Virus genome (UHGV): UHGV-0048736
DNA length: 10,511 bases
Origin: a virus
Strand: one strand, 5' to 3'
Of this stretch, positions 518 through 10,509 are shown in pieces. The first letter of the stretch is position 1; every line of letters starts with the position of its first letter. Under the pieces are notes generated by a model that worked only from the letters and a program-made list of their open reading frames with translations, did no database searches and was not told the DNA's origin. Made by a program: the position numbers and the translations under genes.

Positions 518-700
518 TGTTTCCGAAAGAATCAACGGGTTAGGCCTTAATGGGCTGCGTGGTAATTATCAGCATCCAGAATATGACGGGTTATGTTTCC
601 GACCTCCTCAATTTGAGGTTCCCGAAAATATCAACGGGTTAGGCTGGTTTCCCCGATGTTCGCCGCTGGCGAATTTCGAAAATATCAACCAGTTACCGCC
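518..700. repeat. Degenerate direct repeats of about 25 bp, three copies (TTCCGAAA-ATCAACGGGTTAGGC family)
   Basis: tgtttccgaaagaatcaacgggttaggc (518-545), gttcccgaaaatatcaacgggttaggc (618-644), tttcgaaaatatcaaccagttaccgc (674-699); a related CAAGTTACCGCGCC at 487-500. No supported ORF on either strand across 200-690. Confidence 0.5.
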
Positions 701-974
701 GCAACCGCTCCGGCTTCTTCCAGTGGTACGTAATTTTCTCCGTTTCCCGATACAGTGCCACGCGGCGATTGTAGGCCAGCATTTCAAGAACGCGGATCCG
801 TATGTTGCGCATATCCACATCATTAAGCTGGATACCATCACGGCGCATCACCTCAGCAACAACACGCGCATAATTTTCGGCTGTCACGCTGTCCGGCTGC
901 GTGGCCTGTTCGTCAGTCTGCTGGCTGATTCCACCAGCACGGCGGATTAATCCCAGTATTTCGGCTTCTGTCAT
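693..974 (-). CDS. Hypothetical protein, 93 aa
   Basis: ORF with ATG start and GGGTG-like Shine-Dalgarno upstream; no motif I can recognise. Lies just beyond the left cos copy. Confidence 0.5.
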   Translation of the reverse strand: MTEAEILGLIRRAGGISQQTDEQATQPDSVTAENYARVVAEVMRRDGIQLNDVDMRNIRIRVLEMLAYNRRVALYRETEKITYHWKKPERLRR

Positions 975-1008: not shown

Positions 1009-1225
1009 GGGTCCTTCCTGGAATTATGGACCCGTTACGGGGCGGCGACCTCGCGGTTTTTATCTGTTTATGAAAATTTTTCTGGAAAAAGCATGTCGGT
1101 ACTTCTCGAACATAACTATTTGTTTTTAAATAGATACACAATAAAAAGAAACGACACGGTAATCATCTAAAATGGCGATTTATGACGCTTTCATGTCGTT
1201 TCTCAGTTTTGTTCAATAATTGCGC
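1009..1225 (+). other. Lambda-type cos site, left copy, plus orientation: upstream hairpin, cosN and a cosB-like region with R-site-like motifs
   Basis: Exact lambda cohesive-end 12-mer GGGCGGCGACCT at 1040-1051 followed by CGCGGTTTTT...TTTATGAAAATTTTTCTGG, closely resembling the lambda left end as I recall it. R-site-like motifs: CATGTCGGTACTTCTC (about 1083-1098), GAAACGACACGG (1149-1160) and inverted CATGTCGTTTC (1191-1201). GGGTCC...GGACCC hairpin at 1009-1033. Confidence 0.75.
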
Positions 1226-1230
1226 GTCTG

Positions 1231-1773
1231 TTACTCGCCTTTCTTCTGTAGCAACTTTTCCGGTACGTTTCCGGTTGTTTCTTTCAAGTAATCAGCCAGT
1301 ATCTGTGGGAGGTTGTCGGCAACTCTGGCACTGGCATTACAGGCTTTAACCACTTCCCTTTTAAGCCTATCCAGCATGGCGGGGGTAATCTGTGGGAAGC
1401 TCCTTTGCATAGTAAGCGGGAGGCTGTCCATGATTGATGAAATCTGACTCGCCAGCTTTGAAAGCGCGTACAGGCAAAACTCAGTATCAATCACGTCACC
1501 GCGATCGCGCTCGTTTTTAAGTTCCTGCGCCTCCGCCTGTGCTGTCAGTAATCTGATCCTGACTCGTAAGAGTTCATCATCATCAATATCGCCTTTGTCG
1601 TTTGTAAGCTGGCTAATTGCATTGTTAACCCTATTGTCTATCACGCTGGCAACATCGTAAAACGCCTCACGGCCTTTACGTTCAACGGGAGTCACTCCCC
1701 ACTTGTCGAACGCTGTCGCACTTACACGGCAGCTTTTCGCCATGTTTTTTTTGTTCATCAGGTGCGATTTCAT
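1231..1773 (-). CDS. Terminase small subunit, lambda Nu1-like
   Basis: 180 aa (lambda Nu1 is 181 aa). LLTAQAEAQELKNERDRGDVIDTEFCLYALSKLASQISSIMDSLPLTMQRSFP matches the recalled Nu1 segment LTRAQADAQELKNARDSAEVVETAFCTFVLSRIAGEIASILDGLPLSVQRRFP. N-terminal region (KK..A......W...G.P...GKG.E..YD.A.VI) is consistent with the Nu1 DNA-binding domain. True start may be one of the in-frame ATGs at 1758 or 1743; no clear Shine-Dalgarno at any of them. Confidence 0.85.
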   Translation of the reverse strand: MKSHLMNKKNMAKSCRVSATAFDKWGVTPVERKGREAFYDVASVIDNRVNNAISQLTNDKGDIDDDELLRVRIRLLTAQAEAQELKNERDRGDVIDTEFCLYALSKLASQISSIMDSLPLTMQRSFPQITPAMLDRLKREVVKACNASARVADNLPQILADYLKETTGNVPEKLLQKKGE

Positions 1774-1775
1774 TA

Positions 1776-1811
1776 ATACACCAACTTAATTACTGCTTCA
1801 GGTTGGTGTAT
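1776..1811. promoter_or_regulatory. Perfect 10-bp inverted repeat ATACACCAAC-N16-GTTGGTGTAT abutting the Nu1-like start codon
   Basis: Arms at 1776-1785 and 1802-1811 are exact reverse complements; located 3 to 38 nt upstream of the start at 1773, between the right cosN copy and the gene. Confidence 0.5.
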
Positions 1812-1866
1812 TGTTTGCATCTTTCCCTTTTCATTCATAAAGATAGAGCAAACAACAAAACCACCA

Positions 1867-1875
1867 CCCCCCCCC
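1867..1875. repeat. Homopolymeric C9 tract (G9 on the coding strand) in the Nu1-like upstream region
   Basis: ccaccaccccccccctg read directly; lies between the right cosN copy and the Nu1-like start. Confidence 0.6.
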
Positions 1876-1896
1876 TGAAAAGGCTCATAAATAGCG

Positions 1897-1948
1897 AAAA
1901 ACCGCGAGGTCGCCGCCCCGTAACGGGTCCATATGCCGGAAAGGACCC
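1897..1948 (-). other. Second cosN copy, inverted orientation, collinear with the Nu1-like gene
   Basis: Positions 1897-1933 are the exact reverse complement of 1025-1061 (37/37). cosN GGGCGGCGACCT is on the minus strand at 1907-1918, followed on the minus strand by CGCTATTTATGA as in lambda and then divergent sequence. GGGTCC...GGACCC hairpin conserved at 1926-1948 with a different loop. Confidence 0.75.
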
Positions 1949-1950
1949 AT

Positions 1951-1974
1951 AAAAAAAAGCCGGATTTCTCCGGC
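1951..1974 (-). terminator. Rho-independent terminator after the 137-aa gene
   Basis: GCCGGA-tttc-TCCGGC hairpin (1959-1974) preceded on the plus strand by A8 (1951-1958), giving hairpin plus U-run on the minus transcript; 7 nt past the stop at 1981. Confidence 0.7.
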
Positions 1975-1980
1975 CTTGTC

Positions 1981-2394
1981 TCAGATGGTTTTCAGTATGC
2001 GATCGATGTCGCCGTCATCGCCCTGGTTTCTGCCATCGTATGCCATGCCAGCTGATACGGCTTGCGGGCTGTGCATGTCCATAAAGTTTTCAAAGGCTGC
2101 GGTAAGTTCCGGCGCAACCTTCGGACGTTCCTGCTCTATGGTCATGCTAAGGATGCTTTTAGCCGTACCAACATCGATACAAGGCACGTTTGCCATTGCA
2201 CGTAACAGCGGCTGATAGTCGCCAGATTCATCAAGCGCCATAATCGCATCAGCGCGCGGCTTGTCCTGCTCTTCCAGTTTGTTAAGTTGATATATGGCCT
2301 CGTAGGTTGATAACCCTCTGTCAGCCATTGCCCGCGCTTCGGCTTTAAATTTACTCGCCAGCGGTAGCGTCATGATGCTTTCATTCGTTGCCAT
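1981..2394 (-). CDS. Hypothetical head-module protein, 137 aa
   Basis: ORF with strong Shine-Dalgarno (AGGGGGAACG before ATG), 12 nt after the D-like gene; acidic C-terminal region. Function not assignable from sequence. Confidence 0.6.
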   Translation of the reverse strand: MATNESIMTLPLASKFKAEARAMADRGLSTYEAIYQLNKLEEQDKPRADAIMALDESGDYQPLLRAMANVPCIDVGTAKSILSMTIEQERPKVAPELTAAFENFMDMHSPQAVSAGMAYDGRNQGDDGDIDRILKTI

Positions 2395-2406
2395 CGTTCC
2401 CCCTGC

Positions 2407-2742
2407 TTATCGGGCCAGCGGCTGAACGGATACGCCAGAACCCGCAAAGGCGGCGCATTTTTTCGCATCGGTGTCGACGCTCTCAGGCCAGTTAACGGCG
2501 GCAATATTGAATATCCCCGTCTTGTAACACTGTGCTGATTTCTGCTTTGACGTGTCCACAGGATACGAAGTCAGATAAACAGCCTTGCCAGATTCCTGAC
2601 CATCCCACGGCTTAAACTCGCCATTGTCCGCCAGCATCAGCGGGGTAAATTCCTGAATAACGCCAGCATCAGCGGCAAAATGTACCAGCGTCGTGGCGAC
2701 CTGCTGACTGCCTGCAAATAACTCAATGTATGGAGTGTCCAT
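2407..2742 (-). CDS. Head decoration protein, lambda gpD-like
   Basis: 111 aa (gpD is 110 aa). TPLMLADNGEFKPWDG versus recalled gpD TPLMLDTSSRKLVAWDG; CYKTGIF..NWPE...AKKCAAFAG versus FYKSGTF..LWPE...TKKRTAFAG. GGGGG Shine-Dalgarno. Confidence 0.85.
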   Translation of the reverse strand: MDTPYIELFAGSQQVATTLVHFAADAGVIQEFTPLMLADNGEFKPWDGQESGKAVYLTSYPVDTSKQKSAQCYKTGIFNIAAVNWPESVDTDAKKCAAFAGSGVSVQPLAR

Positions 2743-2753
2743 AGAATCCCCCG

Positions 2754-3809
2754 TTAAGCAATTTTGACGGTAACAAATTTGCGAATATCTGCCGGAACCG
2801 GCTGCGGTGCGCTGTGCGTCTGCACGTACTCAATCGCCGGATCGCCGTCCTCAATCCAGTTTTTCGGGTAAAACATGTTTTGCGTTGCGCCCGTTCTTAC
2901 TGCGTCCTGATCCATAATCGCACCATAGGCCACCAGCCCTTTATTGTTGGTGTTGCCCAGGACAAGCAAATCAGGCTCAAGGAAATATTTTTCTGTGCCG
3001 TCGCTGTCGGCGTATTTGCCGGAATAGACGATAAGGGCAATATCGCCCAGATAGCCTTTAAAGCTCACCACTTCGCCCAGGTTTTTACAGGCCAGCTCTA
3101 CGGCGGACTCTGAACCACGGGAAAGATCGTACAGCTCACGGAATTTTTTAAAGCTGCGTAACGTGCGCCATACCTCAGCGCCCATAATCATGACGTTTGC
3201 GGGGCAACCAGCCTGATCAGCATAAAGCTCGATGTCATAGATTGGATCGTGTGTTTCCTTATCTGCCTCTGACCACTTTTTACCCGGTCCCTGTCTGGCG
3301 ATGTTTTTACTTGGGATCTTCCAGTCTATTTCATAGCGTTCTATGCCTTCGCCCTCAATGATGTTTTTTCCGGTCGTTATCGCATTCACCGCCAGCCATT
3401 CCACGCGCGCTTTAATGGCGTTTATCTGGCGGCGCATGTTGCCAGTAATCAGGCGCATACGGCGGTAGGTAGGGTCGTTAAGCTGTGCTGGATCTTCTCC
3501 AGCCATGCGCATGATGGTTTTTGTTGGATCGATTTCGTGCTTTGGCTTCATGTAGCCAGGTTTGATTGTGCTGGTTTCGTACCCTTTATCGCGCTGAACC
3601 TGGCTACCCACCATAGGCGAACAAAACGCCGACATGGTGACTTCTTCAATGTCCAGGGTATCCAGCATGATGTTTTGCGTGTTGAATGTCGCCACGTTCG
3701 GGAAAAACAGCGTAGTAAACAGAGGGCTGAATTTAAAATCCGCAATATCCCCGCGATTCAGGTACATGAAAAGCTGGTTAGTGTTAAGTGCCGTTGCTTT
3801 GCCTGCCAT
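2754..3809 (-). CDS. Major capsid protein, lambda gpE-like
   Basis: 351 aa (gpE is 341 aa). FKFSPLFTTLFFP versus gpE FKFDPLFLRLFF; KPGYMKPKHEI versus TPGYVKPKHEV; DPTYRRMRLI versus DPAYRRRRII; YPKNWIEDGDPA versus YPKNWVTTGDPA; C-terminal FVTVKIA versus FVSVQLA. GGGGGTG Shine-Dalgarno. Confidence 0.9.
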   Translation of the reverse strand: MAGKATALNTNQLFMYLNRGDIADFKFSPLFTTLFFPNVATFNTQNIMLDTLDIEEVTMSAFCSPMVGSQVQRDKGYETSTIKPGYMKPKHEIDPTKTIMRMAGEDPAQLNDPTYRRMRLITGNMRRQINAIKARVEWLAVNAITTGKNIIEGEGIERYEIDWKIPSKNIARQGPGKKWSEADKETHDPIYDIELYADQAGCPANVMIMGAEVWRTLRSFKKFRELYDLSRGSESAVELACKNLGEVVSFKGYLGDIALIVYSGKYADSDGTEKYFLEPDLLVLGNTNNKGLVAYGAIMDQDAVRTGATQNMFYPKNWIEDGDPAIEYVQTHSAPQPVPADIRKFVTVKIA

Positions 3810-4392: not shown

Positions 4393-4415
4393 AAAAAAGC
4401 CGGATTGCTCCGGCT
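4393..4415 (-). terminator. Rho-independent terminator after ssb
   Basis: AGCCGGA-ttgc-TCCGGCT hairpin preceded on the plus strand by A6 (4393-4398); 16 nt past the ssb stop. Near-identical to the 1951-1974 terminator. Confidence 0.7.
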
Positions 4416-5395: not shown

Positions 5396-7144
5396 TTATA
5401 AAAACGCGTCGCAATCGTCTGTTGTTATTGCGTTAGTCTGCGTTACTCCTTTAACTTTCCGCGTAATATATTCATGTCCGTAAACTTTCGCGGCTGGCTT
5501 CATAGCCTTGCCAAAGTCATTTACGTTTAGCGGTTTGCTCCTGCCTGCGTACGCCATAAACGCCAGATAGACGCGGTAAAGGCTGTTTCTGGTCGTGTAC
5601 TTCACTGAATCGCCACCGCCGCCCATCATCAGGCCGCGTGCTTCCTCCAGAAAATTCAGGAACTGGCAAAACTCAATAACCGGATCCGTCTGTTGCTTTA
5701 TTGCCAGTGCTTCATCACCGTCACGCTGTTCAATGAGTAAAGCCCGTGCCTTTTCAGGGTCGGCAAAGTTCGCCAGCAAGCGGCGGATAATGACAGGGAT
5801 TTCAGCCGCGATCTTTTCCGGTAGCTCCCTGTCTTTTTCTGCCTCGCTTACGATGTTATCGAACCGGAATATCACCCGACGACGTGCCACACCTCCGGCC
5901 CGTTCGGTGAATATCATCGGATTGTTATTGGTTGCCAGCACCACCGCCCTGATTACCGCCGTAAAACGCTTTTCATATTTCGGGTTAATTTCCACGGGGT
6001 CGCCGCCCGTGATTTTCTTGATGCCCGTTCCTTCGCCTGTATATTTCGGCTGGTCTGCCAGGACGATAAGACGACTCCCGACAACCTGCGCACGCCCACC
6101 AGCATCATCAAGCGATGTCATTTCAGCGCTTACCGTGTTTTGTTTCCCTGCCAGAAGGCTGGCTATGTGTGTGAATGTACTTTTACCGCTCCCGCCGTCT
6201 CCGGTGGCCTCAATAAACATCTGCCAGTCGTACCGGTTCGCCATAATCATGTACAGCGCGGCACATATACGCATCATCTTGCGCGGGTCTTTTCCGGCTG
6301 CGTGCTCAAGCCATTTATGAAAGTTTGGCGCGTTATCGCGGATGTTCTCCCCGGGTGCTGGTGGCGTGTACTCAATGCCGTTGTGCGTGGTGATCCAGTT
6401 CTCCGGCGTGTGCGGGGAAAATTCCCCCGTTTTCAGGTCAAGCGCACCATTGGCGAACGGCAGCAAATCGCCGGACGGCTCGCCCATTGGTTCGGCAATA
6501 ACTTTTAACGCTTCCACGGCGTTATTGATTACGCGCTTGCTGAAAGTGGCCCTGTGCTCTGAATAGATCGCCACCATTTCGCGGCTCAGCTCCATTGTGC
6601 TGACCGGACACCATACCCCGCCGCGCCATACGTGAACGATTTCACTTTCAGGATGCACACAAACGCCATCAAAGCGCTCGGCAAGCAGCTGCGCACGCTC
6701 ACTGTCTGCCATTTGTGCCAGTTGCGTATTTTTCTGCTCCGGCATGGTAAGCCCTGCGGCAATATTTTCACGCTCAGCATTCAGATAGCGCCGCCAGTTT
6801 TCACACTTCTGGACGTGCATTCCTTCGGGGTAAAAATTTGCGTCCTGAATATCTGCCGCCGCCAGCTTCTGACCAATCTTTTTGGTCTCCACCAAATCCA
6901 GTTCTCCGGCCTGGTACAGCCTTACGCGCTTTTTCCCATCCGGAACAATTTTCAGTGCATCAAGTTCGGCAAGCTGATTTGGCCCAAGCCACACAGGCGG
7001 CACATTATCGCCGGATGCGGGGCCATCCTGCTCCTGCCATTGTTTCGCGTGCGACCAGGCATCACTACCCGCGAAAATAATTACCTCTGTGTCTTTGTGT
7101 TTTATTCCGCGTGGCTGTTTTTTTACGTTCGGTGCCAGTTTCAT
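5396..7144 (-). CDS. Replication protein: primase / SF3 (D5- or P4-alpha-type) helicase
   Basis: 582 aa. Walker A EATGDGGSGKSTF, downstream Walker B-like hydrophobic stretch (RLIVLADQP) and C-terminal region typical of P4-family primase/helicase; N-terminal roughly 250 aa is primase-like. ATGA overlap with the upstream 99-aa gene; CAGGGG Shine-Dalgarno. Confidence 0.9.
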   Translation of the reverse strand: MKLAPNVKKQPRGIKHKDTEVIIFAGSDAWSHAKQWQEQDGPASGDNVPPVWLGPNQLAELDALKIVPDGKKRVRLYQAGELDLVETKKIGQKLAAADIQDANFYPEGMHVQKCENWRRYLNAERENIAAGLTMPEQKNTQLAQMADSERAQLLAERFDGVCVHPESEIVHVWRGGVWCPVSTMELSREMVAIYSEHRATFSKRVINNAVEALKVIAEPMGEPSGDLLPFANGALDLKTGEFSPHTPENWITTHNGIEYTPPAPGENIRDNAPNFHKWLEHAAGKDPRKMMRICAALYMIMANRYDWQMFIEATGDGGSGKSTFTHIASLLAGKQNTVSAEMTSLDDAGGRAQVVGSRLIVLADQPKYTGEGTGIKKITGGDPVEINPKYEKRFTAVIRAVVLATNNNPMIFTERAGGVARRRVIFRFDNIVSEAEKDRELPEKIAAEIPVIIRRLLANFADPEKARALLIEQRDGDEALAIKQQTDPVIEFCQFLNFLEEARGLMMGGGGDSVKYTTRNSLYRVYLAFMAYAGRSKPLNVNDFGKAMKPAAKVYGHEYITRKVKGVTQTNAITTDDCDAFL

Positions 7145-9222: not shown

Positions 9223-10461
9223 TCAAGAATTTTGGGGGTAAATTCGCGGGGTCATAACAACGATTTTTTCATCATTGTTCTGGAGAAGCTCGAGACGGTC
9301 TACCCATAGATTAAGAGCATCACGTTTTGCATCAAGGTAGCGGGAGTGGTTATAGACTCGTTGCATCCCTGGCATCTGGTGGGCTGTAAGCTGCTCGACA
9401 ATATGCGGATCCACGCCTAAATCGTTCAGTATGGTTGTAAATGTGTGCCGGATATCGTGTAACGTCCAGGGGGCTTGATTAATTCGTCTGTGCGCTGTTC
9501 TTCCGTACTCTGCTACCGAAGATTGTCCTTTCAGTTCACCAAGCAATAAGCCTGTGTGTCTGTTCTGCTCCACCAGTTGCGTGACGAACGGCAAAATGCT
9601 TTCCGGTATTGGCCTGAATATGGCGACCTTCGTTTTGCTGTGCTCCTTCGGTACTGTCCAGAGCATTTCTTTAAAATCCCACTCCTGCACCTCAGAGCGC
9701 CTTAGCTCAGTGGTACGGCATCCAAAAACAATCAGGAGGCGAATTAGGGCGCTGTAGTATGGCGGGAATATTTTGTCATCCAGGGCGCGGAGTAATTCCC
9801 CAAGCTCCTTATTTGTTAGTACGCGCTCGCTCACTTCTGCTTTTTTTCCCACATCACCGACAACCATATCATCAAGAACGTTGCTGATTGCGTATCGTCG
9901 TTTTCGGCAGTACTTAAGCGCCTGTTTGCATACCTGTAGCAAAAATCCGGCAGATACTGGGCTTCGCTTTGCCATCTGGTCAAAACATGCCAACCAGTGC
10001 CGTAGCTCGCATTTTTCCAACGGCAAAGCGCCAATCTGGCTGATTATGTGTTTATTGATCCGGCTTTTCAGTGATTCGTAGTCAGTGCGCTTTTCCTTTG
10101 CATACGATTCAAGCCAGTAAGTGAGCGCTTCCTTAACTGTCACGGGGGCTAACGCATCCTGTACAGCACGATTAAGCTCATAGCGCGGATTTTTCCCCTC
10201 AGCCAGCCAGGCGCGACACTGTGCTGCTTTTTCCCTGGCTGCTTTCAGGCTCAGATCGGGATAATTGCCCAGTCTCAGACGTTCCGGTGATACCTGCCTA
10301 CCAGTTCCGGCCCTGTAAGTGAAATACCAGGTTAACAGGCCGCTGGTGGAATGTCTTACGCTAAGATTGCCACCGTCATTAAAAAAGGCGTTTTTTGTGG
10401 TTGGTGATCCGCTTAATTTTCGTAAAAGAGTGTCGCTAAGTCTATGAATTGCGCTGCTCAT
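9223..10461 (-). CDS. int: Tyrosine site-specific integrase, P4-type
   Basis: 412 aa. C-terminal catalytic region with HDIRHT (His-x-x-Arg) and a downstream tyrosine (RVYNHSRYL); N-terminal region typical of the P4-integrase arm-binding domain. Start codon 25 nt from the right att repeat. Confidence 0.93.
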   Translation of the reverse strand: MSSAIHRLSDTLLRKLSGSPTTKNAFFNDGGNLSVRHSTSGLLTWYFTYRAGTGRQVSPERLRLGNYPDLSLKAAREKAAQCRAWLAEGKNPRYELNRAVQDALAPVTVKEALTYWLESYAKEKRTDYESLKSRINKHIISQIGALPLEKCELRHWLACFDQMAKRSPVSAGFLLQVCKQALKYCRKRRYAISNVLDDMVVGDVGKKAEVSERVLTNKELGELLRALDDKIFPPYYSALIRLLIVFGCRTTELRRSEVQEWDFKEMLWTVPKEHSKTKVAIFRPIPESILPFVTQLVEQNRHTGLLLGELKGQSSVAEYGRTAHRRINQAPWTLHDIRHTFTTILNDLGVDPHIVEQLTAHQMPGMQRVYNHSRYLDAKRDALNLWVDRLELLQNNDEKIVVMTPRIYPQNS

Positions 10462-10485
10462 GTTTCGCGTTTCCGGTCATCAAAA

Positions 10486-10509
10486 TTAACTACACCATTG
10501 ACTACACCG
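10486..10509. repeat. Right copy of boundary direct repeat (putative att core)
   Basis: TTAACTACACCATTGACTACACCG, 23/24 identical to 176-198. Confidence 0.6.

Follow-up and report, generated by a model that had tools for sequence, protein, structure and literature searches.

Two convergent lambda-type cos sites with different cosB regions bracket a full-length small terminase gene in a satellite of the EcCICFT073 family

The virus genome UHGV-0048736, a stretch of 10,511 nucleotides (hereafter the window), is a 10.3-kb cos-type phage-inducible chromosomal island (PICI) of the EcCICFT073 family of Escherichia coli. In this island, a gene for a small terminase subunit (terS) lies between two lambda-type cos sites that face each other and are followed by different cosB regions. 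We consider the arrangement best explained, with a probability of roughly 0.6, as a convergent, flip-tolerant, and swappable two-cos cassette of dual specificity, in which the right, gene-proximal site would serve the island's own TerS and the left, distal site would serve a helper of the phage 21 type. This reading draws on the anatomy of the cassette, its homology to the tested cos1 and cos2 of EcCICFT073, the modular pairing of cosB regions with cassette genes, the swap of the cassette between near-identical islands, and the natural flips described below.

The lambda cohesive-end 12-mer GGGCGGCGACCT has two exact occurrences, one on the plus strand (1040-1051) and one on the minus strand (1907-1918); with up to one mismatch allowed, a dinucleotide-preserving shuffle gave a chance expectation of 0.03 matches per window. 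Both copies are embedded in an exact 37-bp inverted repeat, which gains not one further base of exact match on either side, and each is preceded by a cosQ-like GGGTCC...GGACCC hairpin, the loops of which differ (Table 1). All of these features, coordinates included, had been given correctly in a preliminary description of the window made from its letters alone. The loop difference was considered as a specificity feature and rejected, because islands differ in their loop type and some (L007 and L013) have one type at both sites. In these two, the shared loop type lengthens the inverted repeat to 47-48 bp compared with the window and locus L004, which suggests gene conversion between the two cos cores. 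A third near-match to cosN, GGGCGGCGACCC, lies with one mismatch at 5997-6008 on the minus strand inside the primase gene, where its flanks (ATCACG...CGTGGAAATT) are not cos-like.

In EcCICFT073, two cos sites have been published and tested (Fillol-Salom et al. 2018 ISME J, PMC6092414; 2019 Mol Cell, PMC6739421), and the sequences of cos1 and cos2 are both printed in the supplement. Each site lets lambda and phi80 transduce a plasmid, and transfer of the island is lowered by deletion of cos1, raised by deletion of cos2, and abolished by the double deletion (PMC6092414). The island protein RppA pairs with the helper TerS, and the cosB of cos1, unlike the cosB of cos2, is recognized by the pair (PMC6739421). 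Helper induction and transfer have been shown experimentally for CFT073 only (PMC6092414). When the CFT073 island was aligned with the window, the flanks were 98-99% identical through cosQ, cosN, and ~20 nt beyond; the interior, comprising the gene and both cosB regions, was unrelated. According to this alignment and the published sequences, the right copy is the equivalent of cos1 and the left copy that of cos2. In both islands, the convergent cos pair brackets a packaging-specificity gene, with cos1 collinear with the gene and cos2 inverted next to the gene for a 93-aa protein (hyp93), but this gene encodes a 144-aa Rpp protein in EcCICFT073 and a 180-aa full-length TerS here, and the cosB regions share no relation on either side. 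Because the two cos sites of the family were published in 2018-2019, the core finding is not new, and the preliminary description overstated its novelty: the window belongs to a known PICI family whose two sites were reported in 2018. The published claim that a search of EcCICFT073 yields no phage cosB fails for cos2, which is ~98% identical to the cos of the PhiR12 prophages, deposited later (L131, PhiR12_2, compared with 11100-11300 of L004).

The cosB of the left copy aligned in register with the annotated cos of phage 21 through R3, the IHF site I1, an inverted R2, and R1, with an identity over R3-I1 of 87.9% to phage 21 and 79.5% to PhiR5_1; the left copy also aligned in register with the cos of lambda and of PhiR5_1. 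The start codon of the phage terS maps to 1228-1230, where it abuts the stop codon (1231-1233) of the convergent island terS. Judged from this alignment, no part of a phage-21-type cos (R3-I1-R2-R1) is missing from the left copy, and its end coincides exactly with the phage terS start position, which agrees with the earlier account of a lambda-like cosB with R sites followed by the 3' end of an inverted Nu1 gene. Its cosQ, cosN, R3, I1, R2, and R1 are thus arranged as in phage 21, but what comes after them differs from lambda and phage 21: a phage terS follows there, whereas here the 3' end of the convergent gene is followed by a second cos facing the first from 866 bp away, and the alignment and the gene content of the island place neither a cognate terS nor a terL downstream of the left cos.

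The right copy equals CFT073 cos1 from the terminator through CGCTATTTATGA, but for a single T in the T-run and a single G/T difference. Collinear with terS, it leaves lambda, PhiR5_1, and the left copy after CGCTATTTATGA, ~20 nt past cosN. The cosB that follows had no match among 50,697 phage records, and neither R-type repeats nor an R2/R1/IHF pattern were visible in it. Two stretches of this cosB, TGGTGGTTTTGTTG (1853-1866) and ACACCAACCTGAA (1797-1809), are invariant among 50 terS islands with 34 distinct sequences. Its layout resembles the single-R3 layout of N15 and of the Rpp islands (PMC9026076), and the stretch GGTGGTTTTGTTGTTT resembles the R3 region of phage N15. The motif lies ~8 nt farther from cosN than in N15, however, and the cosN of N15 differs from that of the island, which is the lambda 12-mer. 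The preliminary description was right in calling this copy collinear with Nu1 and different in its downstream region, but the two elements it singled out there, a C9 tract (1867-1875) and a 10-bp inverted repeat (1776-1785 / 1802-1811), are present in the window without being conserved in the 34 distinct relatives, and we rejected both as functional elements. The C9 tract represents one form of a (GGT)n stretch, and changes in one arm of the repeat are not compensated in the other. The G-run or (GGT)n stretch between cosN and TGGTGGTTTTGTTG also varies in length and composition among the window and its relatives L014, L016, and L123, with G9, G11, and 3-nt losses, which shifts the spacing from cosN to the putative TerS site.

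The product of the gene between the two sites scored 83 bits against Pfam family PF07471, for which the curated cut-off is 30, and is 46% identical to N15 gp1, 41% to the PhiR5_1 protein, and 35% to the lambda protein. Its N-terminal winged-helix DNA-binding domain has the N15-type layout, with the same deletions relative to lambda and 21, and its C-terminal two-thirds are of the lambda family, including the oligomerization part and a segment predicted to be equivalent to the TerL-binding segment of lambda Nu1. The open reading frame (ORF) is at or near full length (174-180 of 180 residues) with 84-100% identity in ~50 loci. Rpp proteins were defined as winged-helix proteins of 139-154 aa that lack the TerL-binding C terminus and are homologs of RppA, RppB, or RppC. 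The island TerS falls outside this definition: BLASTP against RppA gave E = 1.4, and no RppC chain was matched in the Protein Data Bank (PDB) at E up to 1. Two neighboring hypothetical ORFs were likewise rejected as Rpp candidates, with neither RppC nor a TerS fragment matched in PDB searches. Unlike Rpp, the island TerS has retained its C-terminal segment and may therefore work without the TerS of the helper. Promoter prediction gave no candidate for terS, and the right cos is preceded by a terminator, so the orientation of the cassette could matter for terS expression.

To place the window among its relatives, we used the 137-aa flank protein (hyp137) as a survey query and collected 80 loci from viral contigs and 37 from metagenomes; both flank genes were present in 97 loci, including nine reference loci. 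A cross-species survey in species-representative genomes found nothing. Cassettes with terS had two convergent cosN in 38 loci and the proximal cos only in 12, cassettes with rppA had two cos in 26 loci, gene-less cassettes of 524-625 bp had two cos in 14 loci, and five loci had a cassette in which no cosN was found. In loci L027, L031, L032, L034, and L093, the flank genes are just 389 nt apart, and no cosN was found with one mismatch allowed; L125, which carries an RppC-like gene of 153 aa, is likewise without a recognizable lambda cosN.

Clustering of the 90 nt past the shared spacer gave six cosB clusters, c0 to c5. Cluster c0, that of the right copy, adjoins terS in all 50 of 50 loci, and c2 is always next to rppA; like c0, c2 had no match in the phage records. 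The distal cosB in terS cassettes is c4 in 20 loci, c5 in 16, and missing in 12; in rppA cassettes it is c1 in 15 loci and c3 in 9, and gene-less cassettes combine c1 and c3. Cluster c1, the cosB of CFT073 cos2, is 98.2% identical to the PhiR12 phage cos and collinear with it to ~185 nt past cosN. Cluster c4 is the 21-like type of the left copy, the R3 of c3 matches that of N15 at 15 of 16 positions, and in c5 the three R sites co-vary to a CAGATCC core, a type of R site also present upstream of terS in phage SerU-LTIIb. In 76 of the 76 two-cos loci surveyed, cosN is intact with at most one mismatch. These comparisons indicate that the gene-proximal cosB is island-specific, whereas four types of distal cosB are shuffled among cassettes, each of which has a phage counterpart, though the strength of the match differs from type to type. 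By the same sequence evidence, the distal site looks like a functional cos from one or another phage specificity group and is not a decayed remnant. The preliminary description had allowed for a left copy that is absent or degenerate in relatives; it is indeed absent from 12 of the 50 terS islands but intact wherever it is present. Its suggestion of dual specificity gains support from the constant pairing of the phage-unmatched c0 with terS, from the 21-like left cosB, and from the difference in Rpp dependence between the homologous cos1 and cos2 (PMC6739421). In the lambdoid phage SerU-LTIIb (L133) itself, cosQ and cosB are lambda-like, but no lambda cosN lies at the expected place within two mismatches, and the cosQ-to-terS stretch is annotated as a 'NU1-like protein' coding sequence.

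The preliminary description had also proposed that the Nu1 cassette is invertible and that the inverted isomer of 1062-1896 be sought in population data. We searched 5,426 complete E. coli genomes for the junction expected from this inversion and found it at full length for the terS type in 5 genomes, compared with the native arrangement in 476. The five flipped genomes fall into two clonal groups, one of 2 and one of 3 genomes, that differ in distal cosB and att site. In two of the five, which have different att sites and distal cosB types, terS is on the strand opposite to all of its neighbors, and both loci are collinear with a synthetic inverted isomer over ~1,820 nt. For the rppA type, a flip-specific junction was found with identical sequence in 15 genomes, compared with 69 native ones. 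One of these loci, in WP4-S17-ESBL-08, has the same RppA and hyp93 accessions and the same att site as CFT073 but a flipped cassette, and it is collinear with a synthetic CFT073 inverted isomer over 4,389 nt at 98.4%. Over 213 nt of interior sequence, identity between this flipped rppA lineage and native-oriented islands, for example that of strain 042, is 100%. A count of 31 flipped rppA genomes was discarded as too high, since gene-less cassettes that carry c1 on that side are matched by the same query. Gene-less cassettes occur in the two orientations in 10 and 4 loci, and the flanks of L063 and L064 are collinear while their middle is inverted at 98% identity. The exact repeat ranges from 22 to 53 bp among islands. 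Window ORFs and Pfam and PHROG annotation revealed no invertase or recombinase in or beside the cassette, the only gene of which is terS with hyp137 and hyp93 as neighbors. Natural inverted isomers thus exist in three cassette types, as the invertible-cassette proposal would have it, but they are rare and clonal. Because the flips are rare, fixed in clones, and unaccompanied by an invertase, a programmed switch is not shown, and a dedicated inversion switch is not supported. The plain explanation of the flips is homologous recombination, by RecA or helper Red, over the 22-53 bp; alternatively, terminase might cut at both sites and the released fragment, with identical overhangs at its two ends, might re-anneal.

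In the mechanism that we propose, the island TerS would bind the right cosB through its N15-type winged-helix domain and recruit the helper's large terminase through the retained C-terminal segment, and helper capsids would then be filled with island DNA. A helper that brings its own TerS of 21 specificity would start at the left cos and package the island directly. Termination in lambda is orientation-dependent and needs cosQ, then cosN, then I2. Because the two cos sites face each other, a terminase that started at one would meet the other backwards and should not cut there. Recombination between the repeats would invert the cassette instead of deleting it, and the convergent layout may have been favored for that reason; with cosQ on both outer flanks, either orientation should stay packageable. 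The conserved cos cores may further act as homology arms for the exchange of whole cassettes among islands and with phages.

Several observations weigh against this dual-specificity reading. The distal cos is absent from 12 of the 50 terS islands and is therefore dispensable, and any benefit from it is hypothetical: in CFT073, its deletion raised transfer by both lambda and phi80 (PMC6092414). The helper phage 4 of CFT073 has a 21-type cosB but the cos2 of the island is of PhiR12 type, so a distal cos need not match the resident helper. A search for resident prophages with a c5 cosB found c5 almost only in islands, its counterpart being only the diverged SerU-LTIIb. Finally, a strong terminator lies between the scaffold-like gene and the right cos, and no terS promoter was predicted. 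The losses in terS islands and the CFT073 deletion result would both fit a left copy that is a functionless by-product, namely, a piece of lambdoid phage from cos to the terS start that was captured as the cassette was acquired through recombination at cosN and merely persists, and the boundary at the phage terS start does resemble a recombination scar. We nevertheless judge this unlikely, because cosN is intact in all two-cos loci surveyed, each of the four distal types has kept its cosB architecture complete, the R sites changing together, and these types are shuffled independently of the gene; moreover, CFT073 cos2 supports plasmid transduction, and only the double deletion abolishes transfer.

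The flips themselves invite a different reading, in which a programmed switch toggles terS or rpp expression, or the direction of packaging, at high frequency in the population. Flipped isomers in three cassette types and at least four lineages, the 213-nt identity between the flipped rppA lineage and native islands, and a terminator before the right cos that would, without a predicted terS promoter, make expression orientation-dependent are all consistent with such a switch. It is nonetheless highly improbable in our view, given the lack of a recombinase in or next to the cassette, the rarity of the terS flips (5 of 481), and the fixation of flips in clones (groups of 2 and 3 terS genomes and 15 identical rppA junctions), although consensus assemblies hide heterogeneity within a culture. 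Equally speculative is a recombinase-free flip element, in which, while the helper grows, terminase would nick both cosN and the excised cassette, carrying one and the same 12-nt overhang at its two ends, would re-anneal either way, or helper Red would act on the 22-53-bp repeats; the flip would uncouple terS or rpp from the late operon and so toggle between an interfering 'hijack' through the island's own cosB and a quiet 'hitch-hike' through the helper-type cos. The left copy could also be mainly an anti-helper decoy, whose helper-type cosB on a multicopy island soaks up TerS or terminase or causes abortive cuts. The completeness of this helper-type cos and the interference with helper packaging by PICIs of the EcCICFT073 family (PMC6739421) are in line with a decoy, but interference in CFT073 maps to rpp and not to cos2 (PMC6739421), and we give the idea little credence. 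A terminase that started at the left copy would still package the full island genome, so a decoy is inseparable by sequence data from the dual specificity that we prefer.

The reason for two cos sites in EcCICFT073-type satellites has been open since 2018, and the comparison offers a concrete, testable answer: the distal site is in all appearance the complete cos of some lambdoid phage, copied from a specificity group to which neither lambda nor phi80 belongs, and it is swapped among islands, which would widen the helper range. The terS-type cassette, the recognition of the distal cos as an entire phage cos with a different specificity, the modular cosB pairing, and the recurrent natural inversion go beyond the accessible literature. 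The accessible texts on EcCICFT073 make no mention of cos orientation, inversion, or a phage match for cos2, and we found no literature on the inversion of PICI cos cassettes in a search that covered texts but not figures, where a drawn map could show orientation. Approximately 480 of the 5,426 complete E. coli genomes, including O157:H7, carry an island with full-length TerS instead of Rpp, which predicts that these islands hijack the helper in a different way that does not involve its TerS. A packaging-specificity module in the form of an exchangeable, flip-tolerant cassette would be relevant for predicting which phages mobilize which islands and for engineering PICI-based delivery vehicles.

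Related strategies are known from the Staphylococcus aureus pathogenicity islands (SaPIs), in which the satellite supplies its own small terminase (the pac-type SaPIs) or copies the helper cos (SaPIbov5 and SaPIbov4, the latter also said to have two putative cos sites). Here, by contrast, both strategies are combined in one cassette, and packaging is of the lambda cos type and not headful. Like the Hin, Gin, and Cin systems and the fim switch, the cassette is a short segment bounded by inverted repeats and found in both orientations, but it has no dedicated recombinase, its repeats are packaging cut sites, and its flips are rare and clonal.

The window is found at 100% identity in E. coli SF-166, where it lies between clpS and cspD. 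Two att repeats enclose 10.3 kb, in which the genes all run on the minus strand. The published att core of PICI EcCIDI14 is the reverse complement of this repeat, and the cspD-clpS integration site is that of EcCIIHE3034 (both Table S1, PMC6092414); with these matches, the element is a catalogued type of Gram-negative PICI. Besides the genes listed in Table 1, the island encodes an integrase (9223-10461), a helix-turn-helix (HTH) regulator annotated in RefSeq, an Icd-like protein, a D5-type primase (5396-7144), and a single-stranded DNA-binding protein (SSB); no terL was found in ORF and annotation scans of the window. Size, integrase, HTH regulator, primase-replication module, and its own att are those of a PICI. 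The gene order is the same as in CFT073: the packaging-specificity gene comes after the homologs of capsid c1499 and decoration c1500, and a lambda-like cosQ and cosN are present.

Table 1 Features of the two-cos cassette and its surroundings in the window. Positions are those of the whole window, and the last column gives the basis of each assignment.
Feature	Position	Strand	Basis
Island att core repeat	174-198; second copy 10485-10509	none	25-nt direct repeat; contains tandem ATTAACTACACC
hyp93, 93 aa, adjoins cassette on distal-cos side	693-974	-	phrog_1561, E = 1.3e-55; nearly identical in CFT073
cosQ-like element of left cos, type B loop	1009-1033	+	aligns with lambda, 21, and PhiR5_1 sequence 5' of cosN
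Left arm of exact 37-bp inverted repeat	1025-1061	none	self-comparison; 56 nt at 89% (to 1080)
cosN of left cos, homologous to EcCICFT073 cos2	1040-1051	+	exact 12-mer; flank TCGTCGGGTCCTTCCTGGAATTATGG matches published cos2
Phage-21-type cosB of left cos (cluster c4)	1052-1230	+	alignment to annotated phage 21 cos
R3 of left cos	1089-1104	+	in-register alignment, phage 21 cos
IHF site I1 of left cos	1113-1125	+	in-register alignment, phage 21 cos
Inverted R2 of left cos	1146-1161	+ (cos)	in-register alignment, phage 21 cos
R1 of left cos	1189-1205	+	in-register alignment, phage 21 cos
Island terS, 180 aa	1231-1773	-	Pfam PF07471 Phage_Nu1, E = 2.3e-23; phrog_57 full length, E = 3.1e-53
Island-specific cosB of right cos (cluster c0)	1774-1906	-	no phage match; conservation among relatives
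Right arm of exact 37-bp inverted repeat	1897-1933	none	self-comparison
cosN of right cos, homologous to EcCICFT073 cos1	1907-1918	-	exact 12-mer; CFT073 cos1 alignment
cosQ-like element of right cos, type A loop	1925-1948	-	loop differs from left copy
Intrinsic terminator after hyp137, just upstream of right cos	1956-1977	-	9-bp stem, then T-run
hyp137, Nu3-like scaffold homolog, adjoins cassette on proximal-cos side	1981-2394	-	phrog_1999 and C-terminal part of phrog_53 head-maturation protease
Decoration protein, D-like	2407-2742	-	Pfam HDPD
Major capsid protein, E-like	2754-3809	-	Pfam Phage_cap_E

Read in the sense of transcription, the head genes at 1981-3809 are arranged E, D, Nu3-like, which is the reverse of the order Nu3, D, E of lambda. 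A terminator-like hairpin, AAAAAAGCCGGATT(T/G)CTCCGGC, is present in two copies that are 95% alike, one after the scaffold-like gene (1953-1974) and one after the SSB gene (4393-4414). In SF-166, a type I-F CRISPR-Cas locus, the csy2 of which has an internal stop, is located ~3 kb from the island.

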